Shown: in pieces, positions 124 to 46,699 of the stretch | How positions within the stretch are numbered: position 1 is the stretch's first letter | Layout of the letters: each line of letters begins with the position of its first letter | IMG/VR virus record: IMGVR_UViG_3300009100_000005 | Reading direction: 5' to 3' (one strand) | DNA length: 47,766 nt | Source: a virus | Program-made: the position numbers and the translations under genes | The notes under the pieces: generated by a model | Told to the model about the DNA's origin: nothing | What the model saw: only the letters and a program-made list of their open reading frames with translations | Databases searched by the model: none

Positions 124-1473
124 CAGCCAGTTCCTATCTGGCAGCGTATCATTGAATCCGTTGCTCGTGGAATAGGTACAGCTGGATCAGAACGCCCTGG
201 CGATGCTTTACTCCAACAGGTTAAAGAGAAAGGTGCTGAGCGACAAGAGCGTAATAGACGGCAGCAAGAGATTGCTAACGTTGCTACTCAATTTCGTCTG
301 ACAGACCTTGCTAATCGGATGGCAGAGAAGCGTCAGATTTCTGCTGAAGGCAGAGGTGAGGCTCGCGATATTGCCAAAGAGCAGAGAGATAAGCAAAGAG
401 ATGTTGAGATGTACAATCTACAACTCTCTGGTCAGAAAACTCTCAAAGGTATGGACAATGACCAAGCTATGAGTATGTTCAATTTGTCCAAAACCTGGGA
501 AAGTCTGATGAGAGAAGAGGATAAAGAATTTGCCCTTCGTCGTGATGAAACACAACGTAAGGGCAATTTTGAGGATCAGTCAAAGATTGCTCAACAGAAT
601 CTTGTCTACAGTCTGATTGCATCGAAGGTTATGGACGGTGGAAAAGTATCCGGTATGATGTCTAAGTTACGCAATGGTGGTGAAGGATTGACTGCCGACG
701 ATATGAAACTGCTCAACAAAGCTGCCGTTCAAATGAGCGATCAGAATTTTACTCGACAGCTTAAGCTTCAAATGGCCCAACGTGATGGTCAGTTTACTGG
801 TATGGAACGAATCCAACACGAGGCTGCTATGGCCGCGATGACTTCTGCCAGAACAGAAGAATTGATCAAGGTGCAAGGTCCAGATGGAGCAAGATTAATT
901 CCTGGCAGAAAAGATGATCTTGGTAAGTACATCATTCCACAAGGCTTTAAGTTTGTAGAGTCAGCAGACTATGGCGAAAGGTTGATGTACTTCTATGATC
1001 AGTTTGGAGTTACTGAAAGATTCAGAGTAGGAAAGAAAGACATAGAGAATCTTGAAGGCAATAACGGACACGACGTTAACCACTTTCTCAATGAAATCAA
1101 AAAAATCAGAGATTCTGGTGGCAACGATGATCAGGTTAAAGCTCAAATGGACATATTGAGTAATAAGTCTCCCAAGTATGCAGATGCTATTAGGTTGGCA
1201 TTGGCTACGGATGAGAACGAAAAACTTAAATCGAAATTTGATGCTAGCAAATCTGCTTTTGATGATACTAGCGGTCCTCTTGGATTTCTTGGTCGAACTT
1301 ATGAAAAGATTACCAAAGAACTTGGTAAACAAGGAACGGCTCGATGGCTTAGACAAGAACTTATCAAAGCTAAGAATAAGAGAGATAGGGCAACTAGCGA
1401 ATCAGATAAACAGGCATTGACAAAATTGATTGCTGAGTTAGAAGGTCGTCTTGATGTAGCAACCAAGAACTAA
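70..1473 (+). CDS. hypothetical charged, coiled-coil-rich protein; putative internal virion protein
   Basis: 467-aa ORF; AGGAG SD and ATG 12 nt after motif 43-57; stop TAA lies inside motif 1470-1484; function inferred only from position after the fibre genes. Confidence 0.75.
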   Translation: MQNEEELRQILAGLQERQQPVPIWQRIIESVARGIGTAGSERPGDALLQQVKEKGAERQERNRRQQEIANVATQFRLTDLANRMAEKRQISAEGRGEARDIAKEQRDKQRDVEMYNLQLSGQKTLKGMDNDQAMSMFNLSKTWESLMREEDKEFALRRDETQRKGNFEDQSKIAQQNLVYSLIASKVMDGGKVSGMMSKLRNGGEGLTADDMKLLNKAAVQMSDQNFTRQLKLQMAQRDGQFTGMERIQHEAAMAAMTSARTEELIKVQGPDGARLIPGRKDDLGKYIIPQGFKFVESADYGERLMYFYDQFGVTERFRVGKKDIENLEGNNGHDVNHFLNEIKKIRDSGGNDDQVKAQMDILSNKSPKYADAIRLALATDENEKLKSKFDASKSAFDDTSGPLGFLGRTYEKITKELGKQGTARWLRQELIKAKNKRDRATSESDKQALTKLIAELEGRLDVATKN

Positions 1474-1484
1474 AGTAACTTTAG
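1470..1484. repeat. junction palindrome CTAAAGTAACTTTAG
   Basis: Exact; holds stop TAA of 70-1473; 9 nt upstream of ATG 1494. Confidence 0.95.
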
Positions 1485-1493
1485 AGGTGTGAA

Positions 1494-4400
1494 ATGCCAC
1501 AAAATGTCTATAAAGCGCAGTTGCCGGTCGAGACTGTGCCACAACCATATCAGGCTCAAGTTCCGTATGAAGCACAATTACCATCTGATGCGGAACCGGC
1601 ACAAGGTTGGGGTGGCGCAGTCCTCTCCACTATTGCTCCGGCATTAGAGTTTATCTCGCGTCCTCAGTATGCCTCAGCCAAGTTTGCCGATAGCTTGGCT
1701 GATCCGTCGAAGTCTATCTTCGATGCGATGCTTGGAGCATTTCAGGAGTTTGTTAGTCCGAAGGATAAACTTTCATACTCTGAAGTTATTAGACGTAGAG
1801 CGCCAGAGTTTGCAAAGATGTATCCTAAAGCTACTTCTGTTATAGGTTTTATGGGAGATGTAGCATTTGATCCAACTACCTATTTAGGTATTGGGTTTGC
1901 TCGACAAGGTTTAACCGTAGGTCGTAAAGTTCTTACAGAGTTTGGTGAACAAACTTTGCACAGACTTGAGAAAGATATAGCACAGCAAGAAATATTGACT
2001 ACGGTTAAGAACAAAGTGAGAACCAATGTTATTGAAGCGGAACGGAAAGGTATACAAGCTCAATCTAGTTTGTTTACTAAGACAGAAGCTAGGCAAAAGT
2101 ATGGCGAGGTTCGTAGTTCGTTCTTACAGGAATTTGATGAACTAGCCAAAGATCCTGAACTTATGCGTAAGCTTCAGAATGGTACTATTGCTAGAAGTCG
2201 AATGAATGATTTGGCTCTTGATGAGTTAAACTCTGCTGGTGCTAAGGCTAAGTTTTCAAAGACTGGATTAGTACAATTGAAAAGACAGAAACCTGTCGAG
2301 TCTGTGATTCGTAAGCTTGCGCCAGAGGAAGTTACCGAAAAGGCAAGCCAGCGTATTCAAAAGTTAGCTGATCTTGATCCTGTTATTGCCTCGAAGTATT
2401 TTAAGCCGCGAGAGATTAACCTTCTTATCGGTCTACCATTCGGTAAACAGAAAGAAGTGTTGAGAATAATGGGTCTTGATTATCTCGACAGCAAGATTGA
2501 TGCTATCGTCAAGTTTAGGGATATGATTGTAGGAAAGAATATTCCTGTAATCAGTGCTGCTCTTGGCGCAGGCATTAAAGCTGGCAGAATGGCAAAGAAT
2601 GCTTTTGTCAGACCAAACGAAGAGCCATACAAGAATGCTATTACCGCTCTTGAGAAAGCTAAAAACTATAACGTAGGAGAAGTACATCGAGAGATTGTCA
2701 AACTATTTGAAGGTGTTGATGAAGCAGGCCGACAAAAGATCAGCAAGCTTGGCGTCGCTATTGACGATGAAAGCAGAGAAGTCGAAGCAAGGATAGGTAG
2801 AAGTCTAACTCAGACAGAAGCAGACAGAATCTATAGGGATGAGCTTTCTAAAGTAACTTTAGCTCCGAAGGAGATGGCTGCTTTTGCTGGTTTGACTCAA
2901 TCATATAAGACAGCAATGGAACTTGAGATGGAAGCTGGACTTCTCAAGAGTGCATTGCTGAATTATTATCCTCGTTATTACAAAGCTTTGGCTGATCCTG
3001 GCGAGATGTCTGTTCTTTTCAAAACTAAAAAAGGATTGTCAACCTCCCTTTCTTCGTCAAAGAAAAGGGAGTTTTTAACTTTACAAGAAGCCGAAGCTAA
3101 TGGATTTGTTCCTGAATTGGATGCTGCCAAGATATACGCTGCTCGTGTTATATCTTCTCGTCGTGCCTTGTCAGTAAAGCAATTTGAAGATTCCTTGAAC
3201 GGCATCTACAACTTGCCACAAGGTACAAAGATTGGTAGCAAAGCATTTAACAAGGTTATCCCTTCTGAAATCAAAGACGATATCAGAACGTTAGGAGAGT
3301 CAGTTTACCCTAGTGGTATGAACTCCACTGTTAATGACTTCTTGTACGCATATGATAGGTTGATGGGATATTTCAGACAAGGTGCAACTATCTTAAAGCC
3401 AGCGTTTGCTGTCAAGCAATTGATTAGCAATACTATGCAAATGGCTTTTGGTACTAATGCTAAAGCCTTTAAGTCTATGGATGGTAGATCATTCCTCGAT
3501 GCATCTATGCTTCTTATGGACTATTACAGAGGCAAACCAATAGAAGGATTACCGGGAGTATTTAAAAGTATCTTGAACAAACATTCTCTATCTGGCGAAG
3601 GTGGCGTTGATGCCATTCTTGCTGGTAGGGTAGCTTTAGAAAGGTTGATTAAAGAAGATGATATTCAATCGTTTGCGAAAGCTATTGAAATCATCCAACC
3701 GTCTGGTATGCGGTATAGCGGGGTTGACGTTGTTCGTCTTGGTAGAGAACACGGAATGGTTGTCAACTTTGACGCATCTGGCGAACAAATGTTCAGGCAA
3801 GTAGATGAGATACTTTCCTATGATCCAAAAAATAAAGTAACTTTATCGAAAGAATTGTTCAAATATTGGAAGATGTCTTCCACGTTTGAAACATATTCTC
3901 GGATGTCTGGTTTCATCCAAGGTTTGCGTATGGGCTATTCGCCTAAGCAAGCTGCCGCTGTAGTCGAAGATAATCTCTTTGATTATCTACACGGTCTGAC
4001 TAAGATAGAGAAAAGTTTTATCAGACGGGTGATGCCATTCTATTCGTTCCAACGCTTTGCTATACCGCAAGTGCTAAGAACGTTAGTACGCCAACCGGGC
4101 AATGCTGCTACTACCAACAAGATAGTTAACTTGATGGAGAAGTTAATTGTACCGGATGCTGAGAAGATGTCGGAGGCTGAAAGGGAAACATTTGGTGATA
4201 CATTACTTGTCGAACAGCCTAGACTATTCACTGGTTTCGACAAAGAAGGTAGAGCCAACTTCAATATCTTCAACAACTTCTCCCCACTAGATGCTTTGTC
4301 TCTTATGGTATATGACCAGAAGACAGATAAACTTGACCTAGAAAGAACAGTTCAAAGAACTTTCTTGGCTGCTCTTGCACCATACCTTAAGATTCCACTT

Positions 4401-4949
4401 GAGATGGCAATAGGCCAGAACTTCTTTACTGGCAAAGCTTTAGAGACTGGTGGTAGGATTGGCCAGTTGTCATACATCACCAATAATACGCCTCAGATTG
4501 TTAAAGACTTTATTGGTTGGGAAGACCGATATAATGAAAGGAGCGGCGAGACTAGAACATACATTAACCCTTACTTTGCACACGTAAGTATGTCTCTATT
4601 TCCTGCTTTACGCGAGTACATCAAACCGCTCGATGCTGAGACTTCTGCTTTAGACAAGGCAATGCAAATGATTGTTGGCAGTGTTAATGTCAAAGCCGAT
4701 TTGAAGGCTCAGTCAGAATGGCAGGCTATGACTAGCAAGGGTAAAGCACAAGAACTAAAGAGTAGCATACGAAAGTCTATGCTTATGGGAAGTGAGAACG
4801 AGTATGAAAAGAACTTGAGGGAATACCAAGAGTATATGACAATGCTCGAAGAGAGTAATAAGAGAAAACAAGCTGGTGATATCCGTGGTGCTGGTCTTGG
4901 TAATCAGATGATGAATGCCGAGCCTGCCATATTTCAAGAGCAAAGATAA
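1494..4949 (+). CDS. large (1151 aa) virion-associated protein, putative ejection/internal core protein
   Basis: Longest ORF and last gene of the structural block, as in the podovirus gene order; ATG 9 nt after motif 1470-1484; carries two in-frame motif copies (2848, 3832); no catalytic motif recognised. Confidence 0.8.
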   Translation: MPQNVYKAQLPVETVPQPYQAQVPYEAQLPSDAEPAQGWGGAVLSTIAPALEFISRPQYASAKFADSLADPSKSIFDAMLGAFQEFVSPKDKLSYSEVIRRRAPEFAKMYPKATSVIGFMGDVAFDPTTYLGIGFARQGLTVGRKVLTEFGEQTLHRLEKDIAQQEILTTVKNKVRTNVIEAERKGIQAQSSLFTKTEARQKYGEVRSSFLQEFDELAKDPELMRKLQNGTIARSRMNDLALDELNSAGAKAKFSKTGLVQLKRQKPVESVIRKLAPEEVTEKASQRIQKLADLDPVIASKYFKPREINLLIGLPFGKQKEVLRIMGLDYLDSKIDAIVKFRDMIVGKNIPVISAALGAGIKAGRMAKNAFVRPNEEPYKNAITALEKAKNYNVGEVHREIVKLFEGVDEAGRQKISKLGVAIDDESREVEARIGRSLTQTEADRIYRDELSKVTLAPKEMAAFAGLTQSYKTAMELEMEAGLLKSALLNYYPRYYKALADPGEMSVLFKTKKGLSTSLSSSKKREFLTLQEAEANGFVPELDAAKIYAARVISSRRALSVKQFEDSLNGIYNLPQGTKIGSKAFNKVIPSEIKDDIRTLGESVYPSGMNSTVNDFLYAYDRLMGYFRQGATILKPAFAVKQLISNTMQMAFGTNAKAFKSMDGRSFLDASMLLMDYYRGKPIEGLPGVFKSILNKHSLSGEGGVDAILAGRVALERLIKEDDIQSFAKAIEIIQPSGMRYSGVDVVRLGREHGMVVNFDASGEQMFRQVDEILSYDPKNKVTLSKELFKYWKMSSTFETYSRMSGFIQGLRMGYSPKQAAAVVEDNLFDYLHGLTKIEKSFIRRVMPFYSFQRFAIPQVLRTLVRQPGNAATTNKIVNLMEKLIVPDAEKMSEAERETFGDTLLVEQPRLFTGFDKEGRANFNIFNNFSPLDALSLMVYDQKTDKLDLERTVQRTFLAALAPYLKIPLEMAIGQNFFTGKALETGGRIGQLSYITNNTPQIVKDFIGWEDRYNERSGETRTYINPYFAHVSMSLFPALREYIKPLDAETSALDKAMQMIVGSVNVKADLKAQSEWQAMTSKGKAQELKSSIRKSMLMGSENEYEKNLREYQEYMTMLEESNKRKQAGDIRGAGLGNQMMNAEPAIFQEQR
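2848..2862. repeat. junction palindrome CTAAAGTAACTTTAG
   Basis: Exact; inside 1494-4949, read as KVTL. Confidence 0.95.
3832..3846. repeat. palindrome variant ATAAAGTAACTTTAT
   Basis: 13-nt core exact; inside 1494-4949, read as KVTL. Confidence 0.9.
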
Positions 4950-4950: not shown

Positions 4951-4965
4951 CTAAAGTAACTTTAG
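4951..4965. repeat. junction palindrome CTAAAGTAACTTTAG
   Basis: Exact; 1 nt after the stop of 1494-4949. Confidence 0.95.
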
Positions 4966-5194: not shown

Positions 5195-5209
5195 CTAAAG
5201 TAACTTTAG
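5195..5209. repeat. junction palindrome CTAAAGTAACTTTAG
   Basis: Exact; 14 nt upstream of ATG 5224. Confidence 0.95.
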
Positions 5210-5223: not shown

Positions 5224-5439
5224 ATGAATACGTTATCTGTTGTACTGACTGTGATAGGATGTACAATGGTGTTGGTAACTTCGGTGATCGGAGCGACTTG
5301 GAGATTGGCAGGTAAGATAGCAGACCTCCAAACTGCAATAGCTACTGCTAATGGCAAGATCGAAGGTCTGCAATTGATTATTTCTTCGCTTCAGTCGAGA
5401 ATAATCCACCTTGAGTCACGGTTGGATGCGAAGGGCTAG
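5224..5439 (+). CDS. small membrane protein (N-terminal TM helix plus coiled coil)
   Basis: Track ORF 5158-5439 trimmed to ATG 5224, which follows motif 5195-5209 and a GGAGGG SD; hydrophobic LSVVLTVIGCTMVLVTSVIG; hairpin plus T-run lies downstream. Confidence 0.65.
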   Translation: MNTLSVVLTVIGCTMVLVTSVIGATWRLAGKIADLQTAIATANGKIEGLQLIISSLQSRIIHLESRLDAKG

Positions 5440-5818
5440 TATTTATATCAACCAATTGTTGCAGGAGGTCTTTTACTCCTGCAATTTCTTTTTCTAGCTC
5501 CAATTGCTTAAAGAAGATATCCTTATTGCCTGCCTCGATTCTCACTACCGTTTGGTACATTTCAGGGTATGTGCCGGGTTTAGGTAGATTGTCGGGAGTG
5601 ATCTTGCCCGCTATTCTTTTGGTGAAGATGTCAGGATCGTCTCTATAGACTTTGTGGCCTAACACCGTTCTCTCTTCTACGTTATTGTCGGTTATTCTTT
5701 TCCAGATAAAGCTATCAGAAGCTTCGTATTTGACTCTAAGTTCTTCTCTGGTATAGAACAACTTGCCATCAAGCTTCACGCCGGTCGGTCTTCTCTTCTC
5801 TTCTTTCATCTTGCTCAC
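5378..5818 (-). CDS. hypothetical protein
   Basis: 146-aa ORF; ATG 5818 lies 9 nt after motif 5828-5842 with a GGAGGG SD; its 3' end overlaps convergent gene 5224-5439 by 62 nt. Confidence 0.65.
   Translation of the reverse strand: MSKMKEEKRRPTGVKLDGKLFYTREELRVKYEASDSFIWKRITDNNVEERTVLGHKVYRDDPDIFTKRIAGKITPDNLPKPGTYPEMYQTVVRIEAGNKDIFFKQLELEKEIAGVKDLLQQLVDINTSPSHPTVTQGGLFSTEAKK
5459..5495 (+). terminator. Rho-independent terminator-like hairpin ending the plus-strand late block
   Basis: TTGCAGGAG (5459-5467) pairs with CTCCTGCAA (5476-5484), 8-nt loop, followed by TTTCTTTTTCT; embedded in the 3' coding part of convergent ORF 5378-5818. Confidence 0.55.
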
Positions 5819-6188
5819 CCTCCTGAGCTAAAGTAACTTTAGCATCTAATTCCACGTCCAATTCTGTGCAATCCTTAAATTCATCAATGATAGTGTGCTT
5901 AAGCTCATATGATAGGTTGAAGTTACGCTGTCTTTTCAACTCTACCACTGCCATTAGGGTGTACTTCATCCAACTATAAAGCATTAACTCTTTCAATGGT
6001 GAGGGATACTTGCTATCAATGTAGAAGCATAATGCTCCACAAAGAACGCGAGACATACCTCGCAAAAAATCTTCATTGTTAAGGTCTTCTTCGTTAAGAT
6101 TAGCTTCTACCTCATCTAGTTGTATCTTTAGACAAGATTCGCCAATTCCGTCCAGCTTGATGCCCATTTCTTTTAGCTCATCAAACAT
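5769..6188 (-). CDS. hypothetical protein
   Basis: Track ORF 5769-6215 begins with GTG; I prefer ATG 6188, which overlaps the upstream stop (ATGTTTGA); the C-terminus reads through motif 5828. Confidence 0.55.
   Translation of the reverse strand: MFDELKEMGIKLDGIGESCLKIQLDEVEANLNEEDLNNEDFLRGMSRVLCGALCFYIDSKYPSPLKELMLYSWMKYTLMAVVELKRQRNFNLSYELKHTIIDEFKDCTELDVELDAKVTLAQEGEQDERREEKTDRREA
5828..5842. repeat. junction palindrome CTAAAGTAACTTTAG
   Basis: Exact; 9 nt upstream of minus-strand ATG 5818; read as KVTL in the upstream ORF. Confidence 0.95.
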
Positions 6189-6570
6189 TCTTCTTTGACT
6201 CCAAGTACCTGACACGGCTTTTTTTTCTCTTCAAGATTGCTCTTGCTAGTTGATCAACCGTGATGTAGTCTCGTACCAATATAGGATTGGTTACTATCAC
6301 TATCCAATTACGGATTTGTGCTTCGCCAATCTTCTCATAGTCATTACTAACACCAACTATTGTGGTATGTCCGGTCCTTCCGATATTGCCTTTTGTTTTG
6401 GAATATCGGATGCCATTGTATTCTATAGCCACTTTCAGATCAGTCCAAGCATAGTCGAATCGCCAATCACGGCTATCCATAAACTTATATTCGTACTGAT
6501 CTGGAAGTGGGAGATTTACTTCAGCAATTTGCGTCAGTAGTAAACCTTTGTAATTCACTTTGTCTTTCAC
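6181..6570 (-). CDS. PD-(D/E)XK-type endonuclease (Vsr/DUF559-like pattern)
   Basis: WRFDYAWTDLKVAIEYNG...H...NDYEK...NWIVIV resembles the D...E-x-K core of Vsr/DUF559-like nucleases; GTG start is the last base of motif 6570-6584. Confidence 0.5.
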   Translation of the reverse strand: MKDKVNYKGLLLTQIAEVNLPLPDQYEYKFMDSRDWRFDYAWTDLKVAIEYNGIRYSKTKGNIGRTGHTTIVGVSNDYEKIGEAQIRNWIVIVTNPILVRDYITVDQLARAILKRKKSRVRYLESKKNV

Positions 6571-6584
6571 TAAAGTTACTTTAG
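6570..6584. repeat. junction palindrome CTAAAGTTACTTTAG
   Basis: Exact; its loop is the stop of 6576-6827; its last base is the G of GTG start 6570. Confidence 0.95.
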
Positions 6585-6827
6585 TTTCTTCAGTTCCTTC
6601 TTGATAGCTTTCTTGGCAGCTTTCAAGTGAAACTTTCGTTCTTTTTCGTTTGTAAACTCTCCGGTCAGACTGTCACCAATTGGTGATTTGTATACTTCTT
6701 TGCCAGAACTGTTAGGAAAGCTAGCAGAGAAATATCCATATCTTAACCGAAGGTAGCCAACCAGTTCTTTCTTATGAAAGACATCGTATTGTTCTGGACA
6801 AGCATCGCAAGTCTTGACTAATACCAT
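6576..6827 (-). CDS. hypothetical protein with lysine-rich C-terminus
   Basis: 83-aa ORF; stop TAA is the loop of motif 6570-6584. Confidence 0.65.
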   Translation of the reverse strand: MVLVKTCDACPEQYDVFHKKELVGYLRLRYGYFSASFPNSSGKEVYKSPIGDSLTGEFTNEKERKFHLKAAKKAIKKELKKLK

Positions 6828-7143: not shown

Positions 7144-7158
7144 CTAAAGTTACTTTAG
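7144..7158. repeat. junction palindrome CTAAAGTTACTTTAG
   Basis: Exact; fused to AGGAG, 7 nt upstream of ATG 7136 (minus strand). Confidence 0.95.
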
Positions 7159-7673: not shown

Positions 7674-7688
7674 CTAAAGTTACTTTAG
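7674..7688. repeat. junction palindrome CTAAAGTTACTTTAG
   Basis: Exact; its loop is the stop of 7680-8102; 11 nt upstream of ATG 7662. Confidence 0.95.
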
Positions 7689-37254: not shown

Positions 37255-37277
37255 CTTCTGATAGAGAGGGTAATACT

Positions 37278-37802: not shown

Positions 37803-37811
37803 GGAGGCGTT

Positions 37812-38429: not shown

Positions 38430-38430
38430 T

Positions 38431-39192: not shown

Positions 39193-39193
39193 G

Positions 39194-39208
39194 CTAAAGT
39201 AACTTTAG
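39194..39208. repeat. junction palindrome CTAAAGTAACTTTAG
   Basis: Exact; 1 nt after the scaffold stop; 40 nt upstream of capsid ATG 39249. Confidence 0.95.
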
Positions 39209-39248
39209 TCCAATATCAACCAAGAGAGGGAGAAAGCAATGTTTAGAA

Positions 39249-40295: not shown

Positions 40296-40296
40296 A

Positions 40297-40311
40297 CTAA
40301 AGTTACTTTAG
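40297..40311. repeat. junction palindrome CTAAAGTTACTTTAG
   Basis: Exact; 1 nt after the capsid stop; 19 nt upstream of ATG 40331. Confidence 0.95.
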
Positions 40312-40330
40312 TTTGGAGAAAGGACAAGAA

Positions 40331-40909
40331 ATGGCTGGTACAACTAATATTCTCGATATTGATCGAGTGACTACTGCCCAAGAGCACGATCTTAGTACGA
40401 TTATGGATGACCCTAGAGGTAAATTTGGGGTCATCACTATCAATCGTGTCATTGCTGGTTCTGTAGTTACTGAAACAGTTCGCTATTCTCCTGGCGGACA
40501 GTTTATGTATGTGCAAGCAGGGTCTACCATTGTTGGTGCTGATGCGGCTGCTGGCGGTGATGCTTTAATGATAAGCAATGCCGGTTCCGATACGCTTAAG
40601 CCTGGACTGGTAATTCCTACTGCTGGCGTTACTGATGTTGTTGCAGGTATAGCTCGCGTATCTCAAGCAACCAGCTCCTTTGGCTGGATGCAAATCAGAG
40701 GTCGCGTATACAATTGTAAGGTGGCTGATGGTTTTGCCGAAGGTGATGCTTTGGGTGCCTCTGCTACTGCTGGAAGACTTGTACTTCTTACTGCTACCAC
40801 GCCAACAACTGCGGAAGTTATAGCGGCTATTCGTTTCGCTGCCGGTCGTCGCGCATTCGGTTTGGTGGATACTGGTGCTAACCTCGGTGACGTTAACCTT
40901 GCGGGGTAA
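40331..40909 (+). CDS. putative head decoration/accessory protein (Ala/Gly-rich)
   Basis: Track ORF trimmed to ATG 40331, 19 nt after motif 40297-40311 with a GGAG SD; positional inference. Confidence 0.45.
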   Translation: MAGTTNILDIDRVTTAQEHDLSTIMDDPRGKFGVITINRVIAGSVVTETVRYSPGGQFMYVQAGSTIVGADAAAGGDALMISNAGSDTLKPGLVIPTAGVTDVVAGIARVSQATSSFGWMQIRGRVYNCKVADGFAEGDALGASATAGRLVLLTATTPTTAEVIAAIRFAAGRRAFGLVDTGANLGDVNLAG

Positions 40910-40911
40910 TT

Positions 40912-41199
40912 ATGCAAAAGAAAAGTGTTGGTCAGCCTTTAGCTAAACAAGTAAAGGCTGACCAAGAATTTACGCTTGCAGATGATTATAGTGAAGAGTA
41001 TCTTGAAGCTAAAGTAACTTTAGTCGAAGAAGAGAAATACAATCTCGGAGAGGGTGAGGCCAAAGAATCAGTAGCTCTTGCAAAGCCGTATAGCAGGAAG
41101 AAACAGCATAAGCTTGTTAATCAAGATTCTGTTGAAGAAATCCTTCCTACGGCATACCAACCGGGATTACTTGTTAGGAGATTAAAGAAAAATGCCTAG
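40912..41199 (+). CDS. hypothetical protein
   Basis: 95-aa ORF; internal motif at 41009. Confidence 0.55.
   Translation: MQKKSVGQPLAKQVKADQEFTLADDYSEEYLEAKVTLVEEEKYNLGEGEAKESVALAKPYSRKKQHKLVNQDSVEEILPTAYQPGLLVRRLKKNA
41009..41023. repeat. junction palindrome CTAAAGTAACTTTAG
   Basis: Exact; inside 40912-41199. Confidence 0.95.
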
Positions 41200-41737
41200 A
41201 CGGATGCAACTTGGCGTTGAGCCTGATATAGAACTCGATGAAACGTTAGGGCAAGGTAGGGGCACTGCTGCTCCTACCTTAGCTGATATGCAAGATGTTC
41301 AAGGCTTCGCTCTTGATGAAGACGACGAGGGAGTGGAACTAGATCCGACTCCTAGATTGGACGCCTTGTTCACGCAAGATGATATTAACTTTCTTCAGGA
41401 AAGCCGACAAGCCCCTGGCTTCTCTTATGATAGCATACTGCAACCAGAGCCAGTACAAGAGGAAGCGGAGTTTAAGGCTAAGAATATCAAAGTAAATCAT
41501 CTGCTCGTAATTAGGAAACCAATTAAGGTTACACCTAGTATGTGCAGAGCGGTTGGTTGCAACTATGATTCTGCCGTTAGCAATGGGTTTCCTGCTGGAT
41601 GGGAGTCTGTGCCAAAAGCTAGACGCCATATCTTTACCGAATTGGTGAAGCAGCATACTACTAAGTACCACAGCGGTATAGAATCCCATATCATCAAGCA
41701 GAATCAGTTGCCGAAACATTGGCTGCATAAAAGCTAG
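41192..41737 (+). CDS. hypothetical protein
   Basis: 181-aa ORF overlapping the upstream gene by 8 nt. Confidence 0.55.
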   Translation: MPRRMQLGVEPDIELDETLGQGRGTAAPTLADMQDVQGFALDEDDEGVELDPTPRLDALFTQDDINFLQESRQAPGFSYDSILQPEPVQEEAEFKAKNIKVNHLLVIRKPIKVTPSMCRAVGCNYDSAVSNGFPAGWESVPKARRHIFTELVKQHTTKYHSGIESHIIKQNQLPKHWLHKS

Positions 41738-41745
41738 AGTAATCG

Positions 41746-41760
41746 CTAAAGTTACTTTAG
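41746..41760. repeat. junction palindrome CTAAAGTTACTTTAG
   Basis: Exact; 21 nt upstream of ATG 41782. Confidence 0.95.
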
Positions 41761-41781
41761 CTCGATAACTCTAGGGGTTTT

Positions 41782-42468
41782 ATGACCGTCAATCAGTTAG
41801 CTCAGATTTTGGTTCGTGAGCAAGCCGAGAAGCAGAGCGATGCCAATTTTATCTCAATGGTTGAAAATTGGATCGCTTCTGCTCTCAAGGTAATTGCTCT
41901 TAAATCGAACTGGAAATTCTTCAAGAAAGAATTTTCTTTTGCTACCGTTGCGCTTCAGCAAGAATATAACCTGCCAGAGGAAGCGCGACAAGTAATATGG
42001 CTTCAGATTGCAAACACAGATACTAAGCTTATTTATCGAGATAAGCGAAAGCAGGCTGAACTTAGAGTTGACTTTGAACAGCAAGGTACTCCTAAGTTCT
42101 GGTCTTATGCTGACAACATCGTCGTTGCAACTAATCCTCTGAGGCGTATTTCTGTACAGCCTATTCCACCTTCGATAATTACCATCATCGGAGAATATTA
42201 TTTCCATCCTGTCAACATCGGTTCTTCTTATGAGATTCCGTTGGATGAAAGCTTTGACGAGATTATCCAATGTTATGTCAGATCGAAGATGATGAAGGTA
42301 GACAAGAACTATGCAGGTGCATCTATCGAGATGCAAGACTTCAATGGTTTATTGGCTACCGCTATTATGATGGAGAGACAGAAGCCAGCTGAAGAACCAG
42401 TAAATGAACCTACTGATATTCCATCGGCTAGGATGTATAACCACAGACTAAGATACACCTGGGAGTAA
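41782..42468 (+). CDS. putative head-tail adaptor/tail tubular protein
   Basis: 228-aa ORF in the position of podovirus adaptor/tubular genes; motif 41746 lies upstream. Confidence 0.45.
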   Translation: MTVNQLAQILVREQAEKQSDANFISMVENWIASALKVIALKSNWKFFKKEFSFATVALQQEYNLPEEARQVIWLQIANTDTKLIYRDKRKQAELRVDFEQQGTPKFWSYADNIVVATNPLRRISVQPIPPSIITIIGEYYFHPVNIGSSYEIPLDESFDEIIQCYVRSKMMKVDKNYAGASIEMQDFNGLLATAIMMERQKPAEEPVNEPTDIPSARMYNHRLRYTWE

Positions 42469-42469
42469 T

Positions 42470-42772
42470 ATGGCATTTGGATCAGGCAACTTAAACCTCG
42501 TTGACAGCGACGGAGCTAAGCATCTCGATCAGATCATAACTCCAACAGGATCATCGTTTACATACGTTAAGATTAGCGCTATTAAGATTGGTGCCAAAGA
42601 TGCTGGTGCAATCGTAGTAGGCGCTACTGGTCTAACAGGATCTAACTACGGATATGCTATTAAAGTGGGAGAAAGCTTGGAACTTATATTCCAAACTGCT
42701 GTCGCTGCTGCTCAGATATTCGTAAGAAATCCTGATACGACTTCGGTTAAGGTGGCAGTAATCGGGGGCTAA
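42470..42772 (+). CDS. hypothetical protein
   Basis: 100-aa ORF with a GGGAG SD; stop lies in motif 42769. Confidence 0.55.
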   Translation: MAFGSGNLNLVDSDGAKHLDQIITPTGSSFTYVKISAIKIGAKDAGAIVVGATGLTGSNYGYAIKVGESLELIFQTAVAAAQIFVRNPDTTSVKVAVIGG

Positions 42773-42783
42773 AGTAACTTTAG
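42769..42783. repeat. junction palindrome CTAAAGTAACTTTAG
   Basis: Exact; holds the upstream stop; 2 nt upstream of ATG 42786. Confidence 0.95.
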
Positions 42784-42785
42784 TT

Positions 42786-44474
42786 ATGGCATTCACTCAA
42801 ATAGAAGACATCAGATTGACTCCATTTAGCCAGCAGAAGTTTTCTGGTGGGATCAATACTTCTACGCCTGCTCCCACTATAGAAGACGATGAGGTAGTTG
42901 ATCAGCTAAACTTGATGCTGGATCAAGGCGATAACTTAGTTACAAGATCGGGTGTTTCTGGCGCTGGTGGTGCTTCTCTTTGGGGTAGTGCTATTTGGGG
43001 TACAAGTCTTTGGAGTAATACCACGTATACTCAGCGCATAACGAGTATGCTCAACTTCCAGAATGAGTCTGGATTCGTTGGTGTTCTCTATACTACTGGA
43101 ACCAAGCTCATTTCAAGGGCGTTAAATGGTAACATAACCGATATAACTGGTAGCTTGACATTACCCGACGATGTATTTTGGCAATGGCAGATAATGAACG
43201 GTATTGCTGTTGGAGTTAATAAGGCTACTTCTGGAAGCAATCCCGTTAAGGTTGTTGGGCCTGCTCCCGGTACTGCTTCAGCATTGGGTGGCAGTCCACC
43301 AAGAGCTAAATATGTTACTTTGTGGAATAGCAGGTTATGGATTGTGCGTGCTGACCAACCAAATCAGATTCAATGTTCTGATCTTGGTAATCCTGAATCG
43401 TGGAACACCGACGGTGGTGCAATTACTTCTCACGGTGCGATCTTTGACAGAGACACAGATGACGGAGATGTAATAACCGGCATTCACGCAACTAGGAAAA
43501 GATTGTTTGTCTTTAAGCGCAGATCAATTCACGTTGCGATAATGGTAAGCGAACCAGTAACTAATTTGAATTTTATCCATTGGGATTTATACTCGGATCA
43601 AATTGGTTGCGTTGCTCCTTATACAATTAAGACGGTAGCGAATGATGTTCTATTCCTTTCCGAGACTGGTGTTGCCAGCTTATCGGCTGTGGAGACTGTG
43701 GCAGATTTCGAGGAATCATTGCTTAGCCGTAAAGTTAGAGATATTTCCTTGATTAGTAAGAACGTTGAGGAAATTTCGGCTGGTGTGTTTGATGATGTTA
43801 CTCAGTATTGGCTATCTATTCCTCAAGTAGCTTCACCTGTAGGCAGGAACATTACATATGTTATGGACTACAGACGAATCTTTGAGAATAAAATTCGCTG
43901 GACTACTTTCGACGGTGGTGCCTGGGGTACTTGCTTTGAGAAGGTTCGCAATGGCAATAACATTGAATATCTTATTGGTGGACAGGATGGTACGGATTTC
44001 TATGTTGGTACATACAAACCGCTTGCCGTTGATAAGATTTATTCAGATGGATCAAAAGCTTATCGTAAGTATTTCAGGACTAAGGCATATGACTTCTCGA
44101 TGCCGAATATTAGGAAGGAATACTTTGAATGGACTATCATATTCTTGATTCGTACTGTTAGTTGTTCTATAGCTGTCAATTACTATTTCGATGATGAACA
44201 ATCAGAGGCTAACGGTAATTATTCGTTCAATTACTCGATTAACGTGACTGGTACGTTGTGGGACCAAGCGCAATGGGATGATGGCGTATACGATCTGACA
44301 TCGAAACCAATTCGTAAGGTAGCACGGAAAGGATTTCTGTTTAATGATGATGGCAGGAAGGCAACTTCCGTGGCATTTGATGTTTTGAATGCGCAATTAG
44401 ATCAAGCTTTTGAAGTGCTTAACTTGTCGGTATACTACTTGCCATTGACATCGGATCTTACGGGAATTGACTAA
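42786..44474 (+). CDS. putative tail (nozzle/tubular) protein
   Basis: 562-aa ORF between the adaptor-like and fibre genes; ATG 2 nt after motif 42769-42783; contains a motif relic at 43306. Confidence 0.5.
   Translation: MAFTQIEDIRLTPFSQQKFSGGINTSTPAPTIEDDEVVDQLNLMLDQGDNLVTRSGVSGAGGASLWGSAIWGTSLWSNTTYTQRITSMLNFQNESGFVGVLYTTGTKLISRALNGNITDITGSLTLPDDVFWQWQIMNGIAVGVNKATSGSNPVKVVGPAPGTASALGGSPPRAKYVTLWNSRLWIVRADQPNQIQCSDLGNPESWNTDGGAITSHGAIFDRDTDDGDVITGIHATRKRLFVFKRRSIHVAIMVSEPVTNLNFIHWDLYSDQIGCVAPYTIKTVANDVLFLSETGVASLSAVETVADFEESLLSRKVRDISLISKNVEEISAGVFDDVTQYWLSIPQVASPVGRNITYVMDYRRIFENKIRWTTFDGGAWGTCFEKVRNGNNIEYLIGGQDGTDFYVGTYKPLAVDKIYSDGSKAYRKYFRTKAYDFSMPNIRKEYFEWTIIFLIRTVSCSIAVNYYFDDEQSEANGNYSFNYSINVTGTLWDQAQWDDGVYDLTSKPIRKVARKGFLFNDDGRKATSVAFDVLNAQLDQAFEVLNLSVYYLPLTSDLTGID
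43306..43322. repeat. motif relic CTAAA-TAT-GTTACTTTG
   Basis: Looks like a copy split by a 3-nt insertion (read as AKYVTLW) inside 42786-44474. Confidence 0.4.
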
Positions 44475-44485
44475 AGTTACTTTAG
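44471..44485. repeat. junction palindrome CTAAAGTTACTTTAG
   Basis: Exact; holds the stop of 42786-44474; fused GGAGG, 9 nt upstream of ATG 44495. Confidence 0.95.
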
Positions 44486-44494
44486 GAGGAAAAT

Positions 44495-44629
44495 ATGCCA
44501 AAAGGTGATCCGGCAGGATATTTGCCAAATGTGAAGAAGTCGAGAAAGAAAGCAACAAAGAAGAAAAAAGGGAAGAAGAATTTATCCTCTGTAAGAGAGA
44601 AGTTCGTTAAGACTGCAATGGGTTACTAA
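44495..44629 (+). CDS. small highly basic protein (44 aa, below track cutoff)
   Basis: My translation is MPKGDPAGYLPNVKKSRKKATKKKKGKKNLSSVREKFVKTAMGY; bracketed by motifs 44471 (fused GGAGG SD) and 44626 (supplies the stop). Confidence 0.4.
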   Translation: MPKGDPAGYLPNVKKSRKKATKKKKGKKNLSSVREKFVKTAMGY

Positions 44630-44640
44630 AGTAACTTTAG
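44626..44640. repeat. junction palindrome CTAAAGTAACTTTAG
   Basis: Exact; fused AGGAG, 8 nt upstream of ATG 44649. Confidence 0.95.
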
Positions 44641-44648
44641 GAGAATAT

Positions 44649-45398
44649 ATGTCATTACCAGCAAGAATTACCGACTTCCAGCCATTGGCTACGATTTTGA
44701 GTAGCGAGGTTGATAGCGAATTTAATAATCTGGTCAATATCTTGAATGGTACTGACCAGACTAAAAACATTCGTGTACGCAGCAACGATAACTCTTTTGC
44801 TGTAGCTAGATTCGATCAACTTGCATCAAGTGCCAATATCTTAGAGTTTTTTTCTGGCGGCGTTGAGGTCGGTAGAGTAGAGAAAGATGGCGATCTAGTC
44901 TGTCTTGGATTATCTGGTGCTGCTGGCATATACACGTTCAGTAGTATTCCTGTTGGTCCAAGTTCTAACCCTACTACCGATAATCAATTCGCCAGAAAGA
45001 AGTATGTTGATGACAAGATTGCTCCTTTTGTTATTACATATAAGATTGACGATCCTTCGACTTTCGGAATAAATGACAACGTTGTATTGCCATTTGTGAG
45101 AATACCTGCGATTACAGGTGGTTTCATAAATAAAATACATATTTGGTATCAATCTGGAAGTCATACTTCGGGGGGAAGCGTTACCTTTAAGCCTAGTATT
45201 TCAGGCGTTGGCAACATTGGTAGTGGCGTCTCGTTCAACAATAGCAACGCTACTATATTCACTGTATATACTGACGACTTTACCGATCAGTCTATATCGG
45301 AAGGTAGTATGCTAAATGCAGTTATAAGTGCCAGGAGTGGAGTTATAACAGAAAGAGATGTCTCTATTAACATAGAAGGATTTAGGAAACTATCTTAA
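44649..45398 (+). CDS. tail fibre/receptor-binding protein 1
   Basis: Its N-terminal roughly 40 aa are paralogous to 45936-46688 (ITDFQPLATILSSEVDSEFNNLVNILNGTD vs LNDFVAGTLILDSQVDSEFNQLVGALNGTD); divergent C-terminus. Confidence 0.55.
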   Translation: MSLPARITDFQPLATILSSEVDSEFNNLVNILNGTDQTKNIRVRSNDNSFAVARFDQLASSANILEFFSGGVEVGRVEKDGDLVCLGLSGAAGIYTFSSIPVGPSSNPTTDNQFARKKYVDDKIAPFVITYKIDDPSTFGINDNVVLPFVRIPAITGGFINKIHIWYQSGSHTSGGSVTFKPSISGVGNIGSGVSFNNSNATIFTVYTDDFTDQSISEGSMLNAVISARSGVITERDVSINIEGFRKLS

Positions 45399-45399
45399 T

Positions 45400-45897
45400 A
45401 TGATTACTGTAAATCCAACTTCAAATCAATCTCCCGATGCTACTCTAGGTGGATTGGCAGTAACTACGCCTAGCAATACGGGGCACGCTCTAACGCAAAC
45501 TGTATCTAACGATGGCGGTTCTACCACTAAGACTATAAGATGGTTTAGTTTTCCTGTAGTGAATGGAACTAAGAAACTGGTTACACTCAAGATAGATCAC
45601 AATACTGAAGGTGTATTGGTAGGCGGTGGCGCTCTCAATGACTATCTTTTGGAACACAGTACCAATGGTGGAAGCTCTTGGTCAACTACTGTACACAGAG
45701 CCAATCTTACTAGCCAAGTAGTAGCAACAGTATCTGTACCTTTATCTGTTGGGCAAGACATATCGCAAGTTCAAGTTCGAGAAACTAACTTTGCATTTAC
45801 GGTGGACCCTGGAGAATCAGCACAAGTTGCTTCGACTACATCGAACGTTAGAGTTGAGATTGAGTTTGTGAATCAAGCGATAATAGTTATGATGTAG
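45400..45897 (+). CDS. hypothetical protein (Ser/Thr/Gly-rich, possible fibre accessory)
   Basis: 165-aa ORF starting 2 nt after the upstream stop. Confidence 0.5.
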   Translation: MITVNPTSNQSPDATLGGLAVTTPSNTGHALTQTVSNDGGSTTKTIRWFSFPVVNGTKKLVTLKIDHNTEGVLVGGGALNDYLLEHSTNGGSSWSTTVHRANLTSQVVATVSVPLSVGQDISQVQVRETNFAFTVDPGESAQVASTTSNVRVEIEFVNQAIIVMM

Positions 45898-45909
45898 TAC
45901 GGTAATTAA

Positions 45910-45924
45910 CTAAAGTAACTTTAG
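45910..45924. repeat. junction palindrome CTAAAGTAACTTTAG
   Basis: Exact; fused AGGAG, 11 nt upstream of ATG 45936. Confidence 0.95.
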
Positions 45925-45935
45925 GAGAAAATACA

Positions 45936-46688
45936 ATGGCACTTGCTAGACTAAATGATTTCGTTGCCGGAACTCTTATCTTAGATTCGCAGGTAGACTC
46001 CGAGTTCAACCAACTTGTTGGAGCACTTAATGGTACAGACTCGATTGAAATATTGCATAAGTTCTCCCACGCGACTACTCCCGTTATAAACGCAAATCAA
46101 CTCAATACTGCCGTAACTGCCCTGATTGTAAAAGGTCAACAGAACTCAGTAGATACCTTTAAAATCAAAGCTAATGGGTACATTGTTGGCTATCCTAAGA
46201 CTATTAACTCGGCTTTGCCTAGCGTTGGCAATGTTGGTGCTGGTGTTGATACATTGTTATCGTATGATATTCCCATAAATAGTCTAGCAGCTGATCTGGA
46301 TTACTTTGAAGCTGAATTTGGTGGCATTTTTGCTACTAATAACAACGACAAGAGGGTTGTAATCAGTATTGGTGGGGTCACGTTTGAAGACACAGGCGTA
46401 ATAGACATAGACGGTCTTGCTTGGAATTTTAGGGTGAAAGGGATAAGAGCAAGCTCTACTTCTTTGATTTTAAATGGTTGTTTTGAGGGAGCATTATTGC
46501 AAACGGATAGCGCAGGTACTAACGCTGCTACAGGGATAGGCGGTAGATTTGATGCCAGAGTTTCTAATCCTACTGGTTTAGCTAACCTTGGTTCCAACGT
46601 ATTAAATCTACTTGTTCAGGCAGAAGGCGTTGCCGACAACGATATAACTATCAGATCGGTCAAGGTTGCTGTTTGCCAGATGAGCTAA
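45936..46688 (+). CDS. tail fibre/receptor-binding protein 2
   Basis: Shares its N-terminal module with 44649-45398; motif 45910 lies upstream with a fused AGGAG; stop lies in motif 46685. Confidence 0.55.
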   Translation: MALARLNDFVAGTLILDSQVDSEFNQLVGALNGTDSIEILHKFSHATTPVINANQLNTAVTALIVKGQQNSVDTFKIKANGYIVGYPKTINSALPSVGNVGAGVDTLLSYDIPINSLAADLDYFEAEFGGIFATNNNDKRVVISIGGVTFEDTGVIDIDGLAWNFRVKGIRASSTSLILNGCFEGALLQTDSAGTNAATGIGGRFDARVSNPTGLANLGSNVLNLLVQAEGVADNDITIRSVKVAVCQMS

Positions 46689-46699
46689 AGTAACTTTAG
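46685..46699. repeat. junction palindrome CTAAAGTAACTTTAG
   Basis: Exact; holds the stop of 45936-46688; fused GGAGG, 9 nt upstream of ATG 46709. Confidence 0.95.

Follow-up and report, generated by a model that had tools for sequence, protein, structure and literature searches.

Why does a phage carry one short palindrome at about 70 places of its chromosome, at gene junctions and inside genes alike? The question is raised by the IMG/VR virus record IMGVR_UViG_3300009100_000005, a stretch of 47,766 nt which was analysed at its full length and is called the window in the following. Nucleotides 1-123 of the window are identical to nucleotides 47644-47766, and the window is a circular assembly or a terminally redundant form of a phage genome of 47,643 bp. 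The element in question is the 15-bp palindrome CTAAAGTAACTTTAG, with W (A or T) at its centre. A preliminary description of the same DNA had read it as a universal gene junction, in which stop codon, RNA hairpin and Shine-Dalgarno (SD) sequence are packed into one cassette. Our analysis points instead to an array of double-stranded DNA (dsDNA) sites for a phage-encoded dimer, probably a ParB/KorB-like protein, and we give this overall reading a probability of about 0.5.

The motif CTAAAGTWACTTTAG has 47 exact matches in the window and 70 matches with at most two mismatches, compared to 0.00 and 0.19 in dinucleotide shuffles. Because the window ends are identical over 123 nt, the palindromes at 43 and 47686 are one site, and 69 distinct copies remain in 47,643 bp once the duplicated end is removed. 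Hardly any change is seen in the 13-bp core TAAAGTWACTTTA, with 3 substitutions in all at 69 x 12 fixed positions; of the outer bases, C is kept in 56 and G in 58 of the 69 copies. Read on the coding strand, 46 copies have A and 23 have T at the centre, a modest orientation bias. Spacing is more even than random (coefficient of variation 0.60 vs 0.98, p<=0.001), and the largest gap between sites is 1883 nt vs 3302 nt in random placements (p<=0.001), so that sites are never more than 1.9 kb apart. For every copy, the open reading frames (ORFs) ending nearby and the starts that come after it were tabulated mechanically; gene starts were set by a heuristic of our own (ORF, codon bias and SD) in place of a trained gene finder, which gave 73 predicted genes. 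The copies in the window are the following, where the gap is the distance in nt between a copy and the start codon.

43-57: junction, start at 70 (gap 12); same site as 47686.
1470-1484: junction; TAA at motif positions 2-4 ends gene 70-1473; start at 1494 (gap 9).
2848-2862: inside the gene for a 1151-aa protein, read S-K-V-T-L-A; followed in frame by AAGGAG and ATG.
3832-3846: variant ATAAAGTAACTTTAT inside the same 1151-aa gene.
4951-4965: 1 nt past the stop of gene 1494-4949; no gene start follows.
5195-5209: junction, start at 5224 (gap 14).
5828-5842: junction of minus-strand genes, start at 5809 (gap 18); lies in the 3' end of the upstream ORF, read KVTL.
6570-6584: junction; TAA of the loop ends gene 6576-6827.
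7144-7158: junction with TTTAGGAG, start at 7136 (gap 7).
7674-7688: junction with TTTAGGAGG; TAA of the loop ends gene 7680-8102; start at 7662.
8128-8142: within the 3' end of gene 8102-9016, 25 nt ahead of a start at 8102.
9095-9109: variant within ORF 8991-9293; a start at 9077 is possible, uncertain.
9529-9543: intragenic.
10412-10426: junction, start at 10405 (gap 6).
11755-11769: intragenic.
12582-12596: junction with TTTAGGAG, start at 12572 (gap 9).
13864-13878: inside the DNA polymerase gene.
14491-14505: variant (CTAAAGCTACTTTAG) inside the DNA polymerase gene.
15159-15173: TAA at positions 2-4 ends gene 15170-15388; the copy forms codons 2-7 (N-K-V-T-L) of the next gene.
15398-15412: junction with TTTAGGAG, GTG start at 15388.
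15821-15835: two mismatches; 9 nt past the stop of the primase-helicase gene.
17198-17212: inside the primase-helicase gene.
17754-17768: junction with TTTAGGAGG, start at 17745.
18728-18742: junction with TTTAGGAG, start at 18718.
19009-19023: junction with TTTAGGAGG; TAA ends gene 19020-19442; start at 19001.
19768-19782: inside gene 19721-19999, 39 nt ahead of a start at 19728.
20554-20568: junction with TTTAGGAG, start at 20544; TAA of the loop closes a 42-codon ORF only.
21340-21354: intragenic.
21737-21751: variant inside the pentapeptide-repeat gene.
22578-22592: junction with TTTAGGAG; TAA of the loop ends gene 22584-22823; start at 22568.
23094-23108: junction with TTTAGGAG; TAA ends gene 23105-23350; start at 23087.
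23928-23942: TAA ends gene 23939-24322; variant ending in TTTAT, which with the following G gives the ATG of gene 23702-23929.
24546-24560: junction; TAA ends gene 24557-24952; start at 24532.
24965-24979: ahead of the first gene (start at 24952) of a long leftward operon.
25307-25321: in the conserved non-coding leader of the leftward operon.
25417-25431: begins 31 nt past the -10 box of the minus-strand promoter 25490-25462.
25759-25773: non-coding, between the terminator 25850-25881 and the promoter at 25490.
26135-26149: directly past the terminator 26157-26187, start at 26115 (gap 19).
27418-27432: proximal copy of the ParB-like gene's leader, 26-27 nt ahead of the start at 27391.
27469-27483: distal copy of the same leader; begins 31 nt past the -10 box of the minus-strand promoter 27542-27514.
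27696-27710: non-coding, after gene 27722-27871.
28410-28424: in the divergent control region.
28583-28597: variant (A at one end, T at the other) in the divergent control region.
28911-28925: begins 28 nt past the -10 box of the rightward promoter 28854-28883 (plus strand).
29208-29222: variant; TAA of the loop ends gene 28974-29216.
29354-29368: non-coding, upstream of the terminator 29439-29469.
29387-29401: non-coding, upstream of the same terminator 29439-29469.
29477-29491: junction directly past this terminator, start at 29503 (gap 11).
30086-30100: junction with TTTAGGAG, start at 30109.
30627-30641: intragenic, read T-K-V-T-L-E.
31348-31362: intragenic, read T-K-V-T-L-D.
32088-32102: TAA ends gene 31798-32091; variant ending in TTTAT, which with the following G gives the terminase ATG; absent in the relative L132.
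32846-32860: inside the terminase gene; relatives carry their own palindrome at the same codon position.
33981-33995: junction; TAA ends the terminase gene; start at 34007.
34213-34227: junction; TAA ends gene 34007-34216; portal start at 34246.
36096-36110: junction, 2 nt past the portal stop, start at 36124.
36912-36926: directly adjoins the 5' end of tRNA-Tyr (36927-37014).
37215-37229: variant in a non-coding island, 25 nt from the next copy.
37240-37254: junction, start at 37278 (gap 23).
38266-38280: intragenic.
39194-39208: 1 nt past the stop of a scaffold-like gene; capsid start at 39249 (gap 40).
40297-40311: junction, 1 nt past the capsid gene stop, start at 40331.
41009-41023: intragenic.
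41746-41760: junction, adaptor gene start at 41782.
42769-42783: junction; TAA ends gene 42470-42772; start at 42786 (gap 2).
44471-44485: junction with TTTAGGAGG; TAA ends gene 42786-44474; start at 44495.
44626-44640: junction with TTTAGGAG; TAA ends gene 44495-44629; start at 44649.
45910-45924: junction with TTTAGGAG, start at 45936.
46685-46699: junction with TTTAGGAGG; TAA ends gene 45936-46688; start at 46709.
47686-47700: same site as 43-57 (123-nt overlap of the window ends).

The tabulation bears out most of the counts on which the junction reading was built. Thirteen copies had been said to stop the upstream gene with their left arm (1470, 15159, 19009, 23094, 23928, 24546, 32088, 33981, 34213, 42769, 44471, 44626 and 46685), and in each case the TAA at motif positions 2-4 does close an ORF, of 47-630 codons. 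From the five proposed loop stops, those at 6570, 7674, 22578 and 29208 stand, whereas at 20554 only a 42-codon ORF ends. The motif indeed supplies the stop codon of about 18 genes, and five further genes stop 3-4 nt ahead of it (at copies 4951, 36096, 39194, 40297 and 47686). The fusion to the SD, proposed for about 17 copies, was likewise found: ACTTTAGGAG lies on the coding strand at 15 junction copies (the 14 cited earlier and 18728), TTTAGAGG, a run into GAGG, at copies 1470 and 29477, and at about 15-17 genes the SD begins with the last AG of the motif. Instead of the roughly 30 copies reported 2-23 nt ahead of a start we counted 32, 24 of them at 6-14 nt.

It also holds that two of the three reading frames are closed in both orientations. 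Frame 1 is closed by TAG at positions 13-15, in the case of W=A also by TAA at positions 7-9, and frame 2 by TAA at positions 2-4; frame 3 is the single open frame and reads K-V-T-L. Because the motif is palindromic, the pattern is identical on the other strand. An ORF that meets the site in the open frame consequently reads through it and overlaps the next gene. At 5828, 12582 and 18728, all between minus-strand genes, the upstream ORFs read through the palindrome (KVTL) and overlap the next gene by an unusually long 40-60 nt.

The word universal, in contrast, was an overstatement. Only about 40 of the 73 predicted genes (55%, with five starts corrected by hand) have a copy at -5 to +45 nt of their start, and 29 of the 69 copies (42%) are away from protein-gene starts. 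Fourteen of these are truly intragenic, among them two each in the genes for the 1151-aa protein and the polymerase and one each in those for primase and terminase; the 15 others are located in leaders and control regions, after operon ends and beside the tRNA.

Relatives of the phage were found by a terminase search, which yielded metagenomic phages of about 40-47 kb, and the DNA around many of the matches was compared. Within a clade whose terminases are at least about 37% identical, the phages carry odd palindromes that are specific for each lineage at 0.5-2.3 copies per kb, mostly 1-2, with the exception of L147 and L148, which have no array. Neither the G+C-rich outgroup (L155-L170) nor L119-L124, which share only a distantly related capsid gene, have arrays, and scans of IMG/VR and metagenomes with the capsid protein gave only relatives at 31-34% identity, all of them without arrays. 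The palindrome types of the clade are listed here with their loci (S, G or C).

CTAAAGTwACTTTAG: the window and L132-L134.
CTAGAGTwACTCTAG: L177.
ACTGAAGTwACTTCAGT: L129.
TTAAAG.w.CTTTAA: L128.
TTTAAACCwGGTTTAAA: L130.
TT(T)AAATwATTTAA(A): L135, L137, L139, L142, L146, L150 and L152.
TTCAAATsATTTGAA: L136, L145, L154 and L172.
TTTAACCsGGTTAAA: L140, L143, L144 and L171.
TTAAACAsTGTTTAA: L149.
TTCAAACAGTTTGAA: L153.
GCTTAAGC-N3-GCTTAAG: L178.

The bases beside the centre are complementary in every type except those of L128 and L178, in which the central three bases vary. Between close relatives (about 74-79% nucleotide identity), 11% of the motif columns differ compared to a background of 26%, and the differences are mostly at W and at the outer bases. 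Junction copies are gained or lost between close relatives, as exemplified by 32088, which is missing in L132. One position inside the terminase gene is particularly informative. Directly after the conserved D-D-E-Y-R, the window, L132, L128, L129, L130, L137, L177 and L178 each carry their own palindrome, and the encoded peptide varies accordingly (TKVTLV, TEVTSV, KETLKT, IYFKPGLK, TRVTLE, LKLGLS). From the peptide YRTRVTLEE we predicted the palindrome CTAGAGTwACTCTAG before the DNA of L177 had been seen, and 18 copies of it were then found in 9.4 kb of L177. A position that is kept while its sequence switches indicates that individual copies are under selection and that the determinant of specificity is encoded by the phage.

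The two members without an array (L147, IMGVR_UViG_3300012944_000016; L148, IMGVR_UViG_3300050512_000016) encode the ParB-like protein described below and have no iterated palindrome; a sparse or hidden one was looked for in both and none was found. They may represent either a natural loss of the array or the ancestral state. The core also occurs outside the clade: an unrelated podovirus (L055/L065/L078, IMGVR_UViG_3300029913_000052), with a T7-like tail-fibre N-terminus and a polymerase of 24% identity, carries TAAAG(T/C)(W)(A/G)CTTTA at 0.9 per kb, mostly inside genes or at starts without SD. Among the matches listed in a motif scan of IMG/VR this was the only multi-copy contig, the others being single chance matches, and a scan for the 17-mer ACTGAAGTWACTTCAGT gave 8 single chance matches only. 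L130, whose palindrome has CCWGG at its centre, encodes a D12-class N6-adenine methyltransferase (8160-8966); no methyltransferase was seen in the window.

Is the element used as RNA or as DNA? An mRNA cassette, which controls initiation or termination-reinitiation of almost all cistrons through its folding or through an RNA-binding protein, or which serves as a 5' stabiliser or processing site, would explain why 40 of the 69 copies lie at most 45 nt upstream of a start, with 24 of them at 6-14 nt, why 15 copies run into GGAG and why about 18 stops lie inside the motif. The start association recurs in relatives, a stem is predicted in the mRNA context of 31 of 46 exact copies, and some L177 copies are located between SD and ATG, where a hairpin could shorten the spacer. 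As RNA, however, the element gives a stem of 6 bp with a loop of 3 nt and a computed stability of only -1.9 kcal/mol with W=A and -0.4 kcal/mol with W=U, and the predicted hairpin would sequester only 2 nt of the SD. The stem does not extend, since flanking pairs past the 15-mer are complementary in 35, 22, 19 and 17% of the copies, no more than by chance, nor do the arms covary: of the copies with a terminal variant, 17 have no compensating change and 3 do. Features of a terminator or a stable RNA hairpin are lacking as well (weak stem, no T-run), and no terminator-like site of our scan coincides with a copy. Rfam gave no match except the tRNA.

The supposed loop argues in the same direction. 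Its T-W-A is itself palindromic in every window copy, and the same is true for every palindrome type of the relatives with fixed bases beside the centre, where the central base is W or S depending on the lineage and occurs in both orientations. Palindromy through the centre, with W or S both ways, suggests a two-fold axis through a base pair of dsDNA and not a hairpin loop. Moreover, the arrangement of palindrome and SD varies among the relatives: in L130 the start can lie 3-6 nt past the palindrome without any SD, in L177 the SD can precede the palindrome and the ATG come at the 3' end of the latter, and L055 has no SD at all. Three junctions of L177 (1352, 1579 and 1875) have the order TGA-GG-TAGAGTAACTCTA-ATG, with the stop and an SD-like GAGG upstream and an ATG that overlaps the 3' end of the palindrome, and in this layout the palindrome fills the spacer between SD and start. 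The geometry of stem and loop would fit the N4-type hairpin promoters (stem of 5-7 bp, loop of 3 nt), which are read by a giant RNA polymerase packaged in the virion, but no RNA polymerase was detected in sequence-level searches, and a start 11 nt past the loop centre would fall inside the SD.

Taken together, the stop and SD overlaps of the proposed cassette are real, while its gating hairpin is unlikely: the stem is marginal, the loop is palindromic, compensatory variants are missing, the bias of the central base is modest, and 29 copies lie off protein-gene starts (14 intragenic, one at the tRNA, others in promoter leaders). We therefore regard a function as mRNA cassette as quite unlikely, and consider it probable that a phage-encoded dimer reads the 15 bp as a site of two-fold symmetry on dsDNA, so that the element would act at the level of DNA.

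Which protein could read such a site? One gene in the early region stands out as a candidate.

26195-27391, minus strand: ParB/KorB-family protein of 398 aa, candidate binder, with a GRQRR box, a helix-turn-helix (HTH) and a fold match.

The window protein has a weak match to a ParB-like PHROG and no Pfam match, and a sequence search of the PDB gave nothing significant. Its GRQRR box shows no change in 6 homologues, 11 proteins of the clade have a conserved G-x-Q-R, and the HTH is NKEIAQLLKKSEMWISKVARV. Using an AlphaFold2 (AF2) model, the top Foldseek matches all belonged to the ParB family, namely KorB of RK2 (8qa9, E=2e-4), Caulobacter ParB, Noc and Spo0J, with E-values of 2e-4 to 5e-3, and the alignment spans about 235 columns of KorB/ParB, comprising the N-terminal and the DNA-binding domain. 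The homologues of L135 (31.7 bits) and L148 (25.8 bits) pass the gathering score of Pfam HTH_ParB (22.6) and match ParB_N below its gathering score; the L147 homologue was found only with a profile of our own.

The distribution of the gene points in the same direction. A syntenic ParB-like gene is present in 11 of 11 clade loci with a visible early region and in none of the outgroup loci with the same flank, and in 9 of 9 array-bearing loci the palindrome of the respective lineage lies 9-44 nt ahead of the ParB-like start. In the CTAAAGT group, the two leader copies keep their spacing (about 78 and 27 nt) even at a ParB-like protein identity of only 44%. The recognition helix shows conservation among the members of this group and likewise among those of the TTCAAAT group, but not from one group to the other, and no other family tracked the arrays in an all-against-all clustering of genes. 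Based on these findings, the ParB-like protein is our predicted reader of the palindrome, a tentative assignment a little short of an even bet.

Several observations weigh against our interpretation. The close link to starts, which the relatives share, could reflect an RNA-level function in expression, and the weak stem is after all predicted to form in mRNA context at the 31 copies mentioned above. The AF2 model is of moderate confidence (predicted local distance difference test, pLDDT, of 65 from a 6-sequence alignment) and its template-modelling (TM) scores are low. L135 and L146 share the core TAAATwATTTA, yet the HTH helices of their ParB-like proteins differ (26% identity), and L147 and L148 have the ParB-like protein without an iterated palindrome. 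L055 shares the core, and no homologue of the window ParB-like protein was found in the available parts of its contig or in a search of 5.8 billion proteins. Finally, a leader copy before the ParB-like gene is unremarkable by itself, because 55% of all genes have an upstream copy.

This imperfect covariation (L135 vs L146, L147/L148) leaves room for a dsDNA operator array with another reader, which could be a winged-helix paralogue, another small early protein or a host factor. The window encodes three tandem paralogous winged-helix genes of about 80 aa each (22584-23350, minus strand; HTH_34 / PadR / ArsR-like), winged-helix dimers bind palindromes of such size, and the core shared with the unrelated L055 could indicate a common host factor. 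However, outside the window winged-helix homologues are present in the closest relative L134 only, at 28% identity despite the same palindrome, and none was found in further array-bearing loci whose sequence includes this early region; the trio was therefore rejected as a clade-wide binder. If a host factor were the reader, the different palindromes of close relatives with similar G+C and terminases of 52-56% identity would be left unexplained, and the clustering of all genes brought up no further family that follows the arrays. Another reader thus appears unlikely.

How such a reader might act is suggested by the promoters. Three sigma70-like promoters can be recognised in the early region.

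27514-27542, minus strand: promoter of the ParB-like gene (TTGACA-17-TATGCT).
25462-25490, minus strand: promoter of the leftward operon (TTGACA-17-TATCAT), the strongest with 11/12 matches.
28854-28883, plus strand: promoter of the rightward early unit (TTATCA-18-TATAAT).

At all three, a copy of the palindrome begins 28-31 nt past the -10 box, and two of the three promoter modules have the upstream sequence ATTTTGTrGTTGACA in common. Strong hairpin terminators at 26157-26187, 25850-25881 and 29439-29469 (stems of 12-14 bp, T-runs) bracket the immediate-early units, the one at 26157 being bidirectional. Between 24980 and 25890, about 900 nt have no convincing gene and contain a leader of about 500 nt with three palindromes; this sequence is conserved in L132-L134. 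The terminator at 29439 separates the rightward early promoter from the late genes, whose expression may therefore call for read-through or antitermination.

In the mechanism that we propose for a ParB-like reader, its gene would form a self-contained immediate-early unit consisting of a sigma70-like promoter, two leader palindromes, the gene and a strong terminator, and the product would bind the 69 sites. By analogy with KorB, ParB and Noc, CTP-dependent clamps might then close and slide from the sites. The outcome could be a genome-wide control of transcription, which is speculative: sites 28-31 nt past the -10 boxes would serve as roadblock or shut-off, and sites within operons might act like stoperators or distal KorB operators. 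Alternatively, the sites could mark the phage chromosome as 'self'. That the sites gather at gene junctions would follow from the tight packing of the genome, which has hardly any non-coding bases outside its spacers. Sharing of bases with stop codons and SD sequences looks like a secondary, space-saving co-option, and where no spacer is at hand, the intragenic copies are best explained by tolerance of the site in the single open frame K-V-T-L.

The late region from 29600 to 47766 leaves room for a different idea. Sigma70-like promoters are not above chance in these 18 kb (30 vs 35.9 in the shuffle expectation), nor are intrinsic terminators (9 vs 11.6), copies of the palindrome precede most late genes, and the half-site TAAAGT resembles a -10 hexamer (A at 2, T at 6) and was matched as one in our promoter scan. 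The palindrome could accordingly be a gene-proximal promoter or activator site that gives most genes a transcription start of their own, similar to the late promoters of T4. But a palindrome would fire in both directions, copies are equally frequent in early and late modules and also lie downstream of bona fide sigma70-like promoters, the -10 likeness is lost in other lineages (TTTAAACCwGG, ACTGAAGT), and no phage RNA polymerase or sigma factor was detected. We consider a promoter function very unlikely.

Even less can be said for an element without a function of its own, spread by sequence drive (biased repair or gene conversion, cf. the cyanobacterial HIP1) or kept as short homology for the shuffling of modules. 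Copies do occur inside genes and flank most genes like cassette boundaries, close relatives do not have all junction copies in common (L132 lacks 32088), and recombination genes are present, including a Cas4/RecE-like exonuclease. Such spread is hard to reconcile with the strong preference for non-coding spacers, the fixed placement after promoters, the even spacing and the conservation of position while the sequence switches, and lineage-specific palindromes would hinder exchange between lineages. This makes the idea highly improbable.

Among known systems, KorB with its operator O_B is by analogy the closest mechanistic counterpart of a ParB-like protein at the window sites. O_B is a 13-bp odd palindrome with a single central bp, TTTAGC-G-GCTAAA (PMC11790492). 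With KorB/O_B of the IncP plasmid RK2, ParB-parS and Noc with its binding sites (NBS), the window shares a protein that has the ParB fold, an arginine box and an HTH. As in the KorB system, short odd palindromes with a single central bp are spread across the entire replicon, both close to promoters and at a distance, and the regulator gene has one or more sites of its own upstream. About a dozen O_B sites are present on RK2, about 10 parS sites on a chromosome and about 70 NBS on an entire chromosome, whereas the window has about 70 sites in 47.6 kb. Further differences to KorB and ParB are the carrier, apparently a lytic phage, the missing partner, since no ParA or KorA was found, the placement at nearly every second junction and inside genes, and the rapid switching of specificity between sister lineages. 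No ParA, CbiA or AAA_31 match was obtained among the window proteins scanned with Pfam and PHROGs, and the genes flanking the ParB-like gene encode small proteins. In the literature we found no account of a ParB-type array at such density in a phage.

Several mycobacteriophage-type arrays are similar in part. Cluster A phages (L5/Bxb1 type) have dozens of 13-14-bp repressor sites across the genome, the stoperators, largely in short intergenic spaces, which block the elongation of transcripts (PMC9283540), and the motif varies with the repressor between immunity groups (PMC6550527). Stoperators are asymmetric, oriented with transcription and bound by a monomeric immunity repressor of temperate phages, whereas the window sites are perfect, unoriented palindromes. 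Neither an integrase nor a CI-like repressor was found by Pfam and PHROGs in the window, a weak negative given the low annotation coverage. Cluster O phages (Corndog) contain more than 30 invariant copies of the 17-bp TGTTCGG-N3-CCGAACA, intergenic, near 5' ends and about one third intragenic, without orientation bias, in a genome that has a protein with a ParB-like domain (PMC4351075). The window palindrome resembles these dyad repeats, with more than 30 invariant copies per genome that are intergenic as well as intragenic and unoriented. The likeness is one of description only: sequence and host are unrelated, the Cluster O repeat is 7-3-7 with a free centre and not closely linked to starts, and the lineage-specific switching of the window clade has not been described for it. 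Cluster K phages carry the start-associated and extended start-associated sequences (SAS/ESAS), a conserved 13-bp motif that directly precedes many starts and overlaps with the ribosome-binding site (PMC3203893). Unlike the palindrome, SAS has no symmetry, includes the SD and is strictly linked to starts (contrasted in PMC4351075); in the window, 42% of the copies are off starts, and the SD is external to the invariant core and joined to the motif in only 15-17 copies.

The remaining gene content is that of a phage without a close isolated relative: megablast found none among isolated phages, and all tblastn matches were at most 29% identical. A host search against genome contigs gave no usable match. 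Genes run leftward from about 28.1 kb to 5.4 kb and rightward from about 29.0 kb across the ends to 5.4 kb, where the 3' ends of the convergent last genes, 5224-5439 (plus strand) and 5378-5809 (minus strand), overlap by about 60 nt. Annotation by Pfam and PHROGs identified the following genes.

32101-33984, rightward: large terminase.
34246-36093, rightward: portal.
39249-40295, rightward: major capsid protein.
41782-42468, rightward: SU10-type adaptor.
12794-14743, minus strand: family-A DNA polymerase.
15843-17459, minus strand: primase-helicase.

RNA polymerase, sigma factor, integrase, ParA and methyltransferase were not found among nearly all window proteins, most of which remain unannotated by Pfam and PHROGs. 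On the minus strand are furthermore genes for a pentapeptide-repeat protein (21474-22262), an SPFH/Band-7 lipoprotein (17915-18718), the Cas4/RecE-like exonuclease (8102-9016), a MazG-like protein (10031-10405) and a PHROG-503 protein (6181-6570), whose motifs look to us like those of a Vsr/DUF559-type endonuclease. The 1151-aa protein had no match to Pfam, PHROGs or PDB in sequence-level searches, which did not include a fold search. Inside its gene (2848-2880), the intragenic palindrome is followed by AAGGAG and by an in-frame ATG 11 nt downstream, which judging from the sequence could be an internal translation start for a product of 691 aa. A non-coding island of 650 nt (36622-37277) contains the tRNA-Tyr gene (36927-37014, anticodon GTA), with tRNA-like fragments downstream of it at about 37040-37110, and is bracketed by the palindromes 36912, 37215 and 37240.

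What would the array mean for these phages? It is possible, though we would rather bet against it, that in an apparently lytic podovirus-like clade, with adaptor and portal of the SU10 type, a CTP clamp of the ParB/KorB type, loaded at about 70 sites (about 1 per 700 bp), coats or silences the phage chromosome, and that sites and protein have co-evolved fast enough to give mutually incompatible palindromes in sister lineages. Under such a scheme the symmetric switches from A to G and T to C and the change from W to S centres would fit a competition between phages, by analogy with heteroimmunity, and sites would be kept even inside essential genes such as the terminase gene.

Several points follow at different strength. 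The entanglement of the palindrome with stop codons and ribosome-binding sites is a caution against reading such motifs as translational signals. A signal that probably acts at the level of DNA here shapes coding sequence, as seen in the inserts K-V-T-L, T-E-V-T-S and F-K-P-G-L of the terminase, and the terminase peptide after Y-R is a practical marker, which predicted the palindrome in one blind case (L177). If the overall reading is true, the window would hold the densest known array of sites for a ParB/KorB-type protein, or another dimer, on any replicon, and it would do so in a phage. The clade would then offer at least 10 natural variants of specificity, some of which are one symmetric bp change apart (CTAAAGT, CTAGAGT, CTGAAGT), and this series would be usable to study how a protein and its roughly 70 sites change their specificity jointly.

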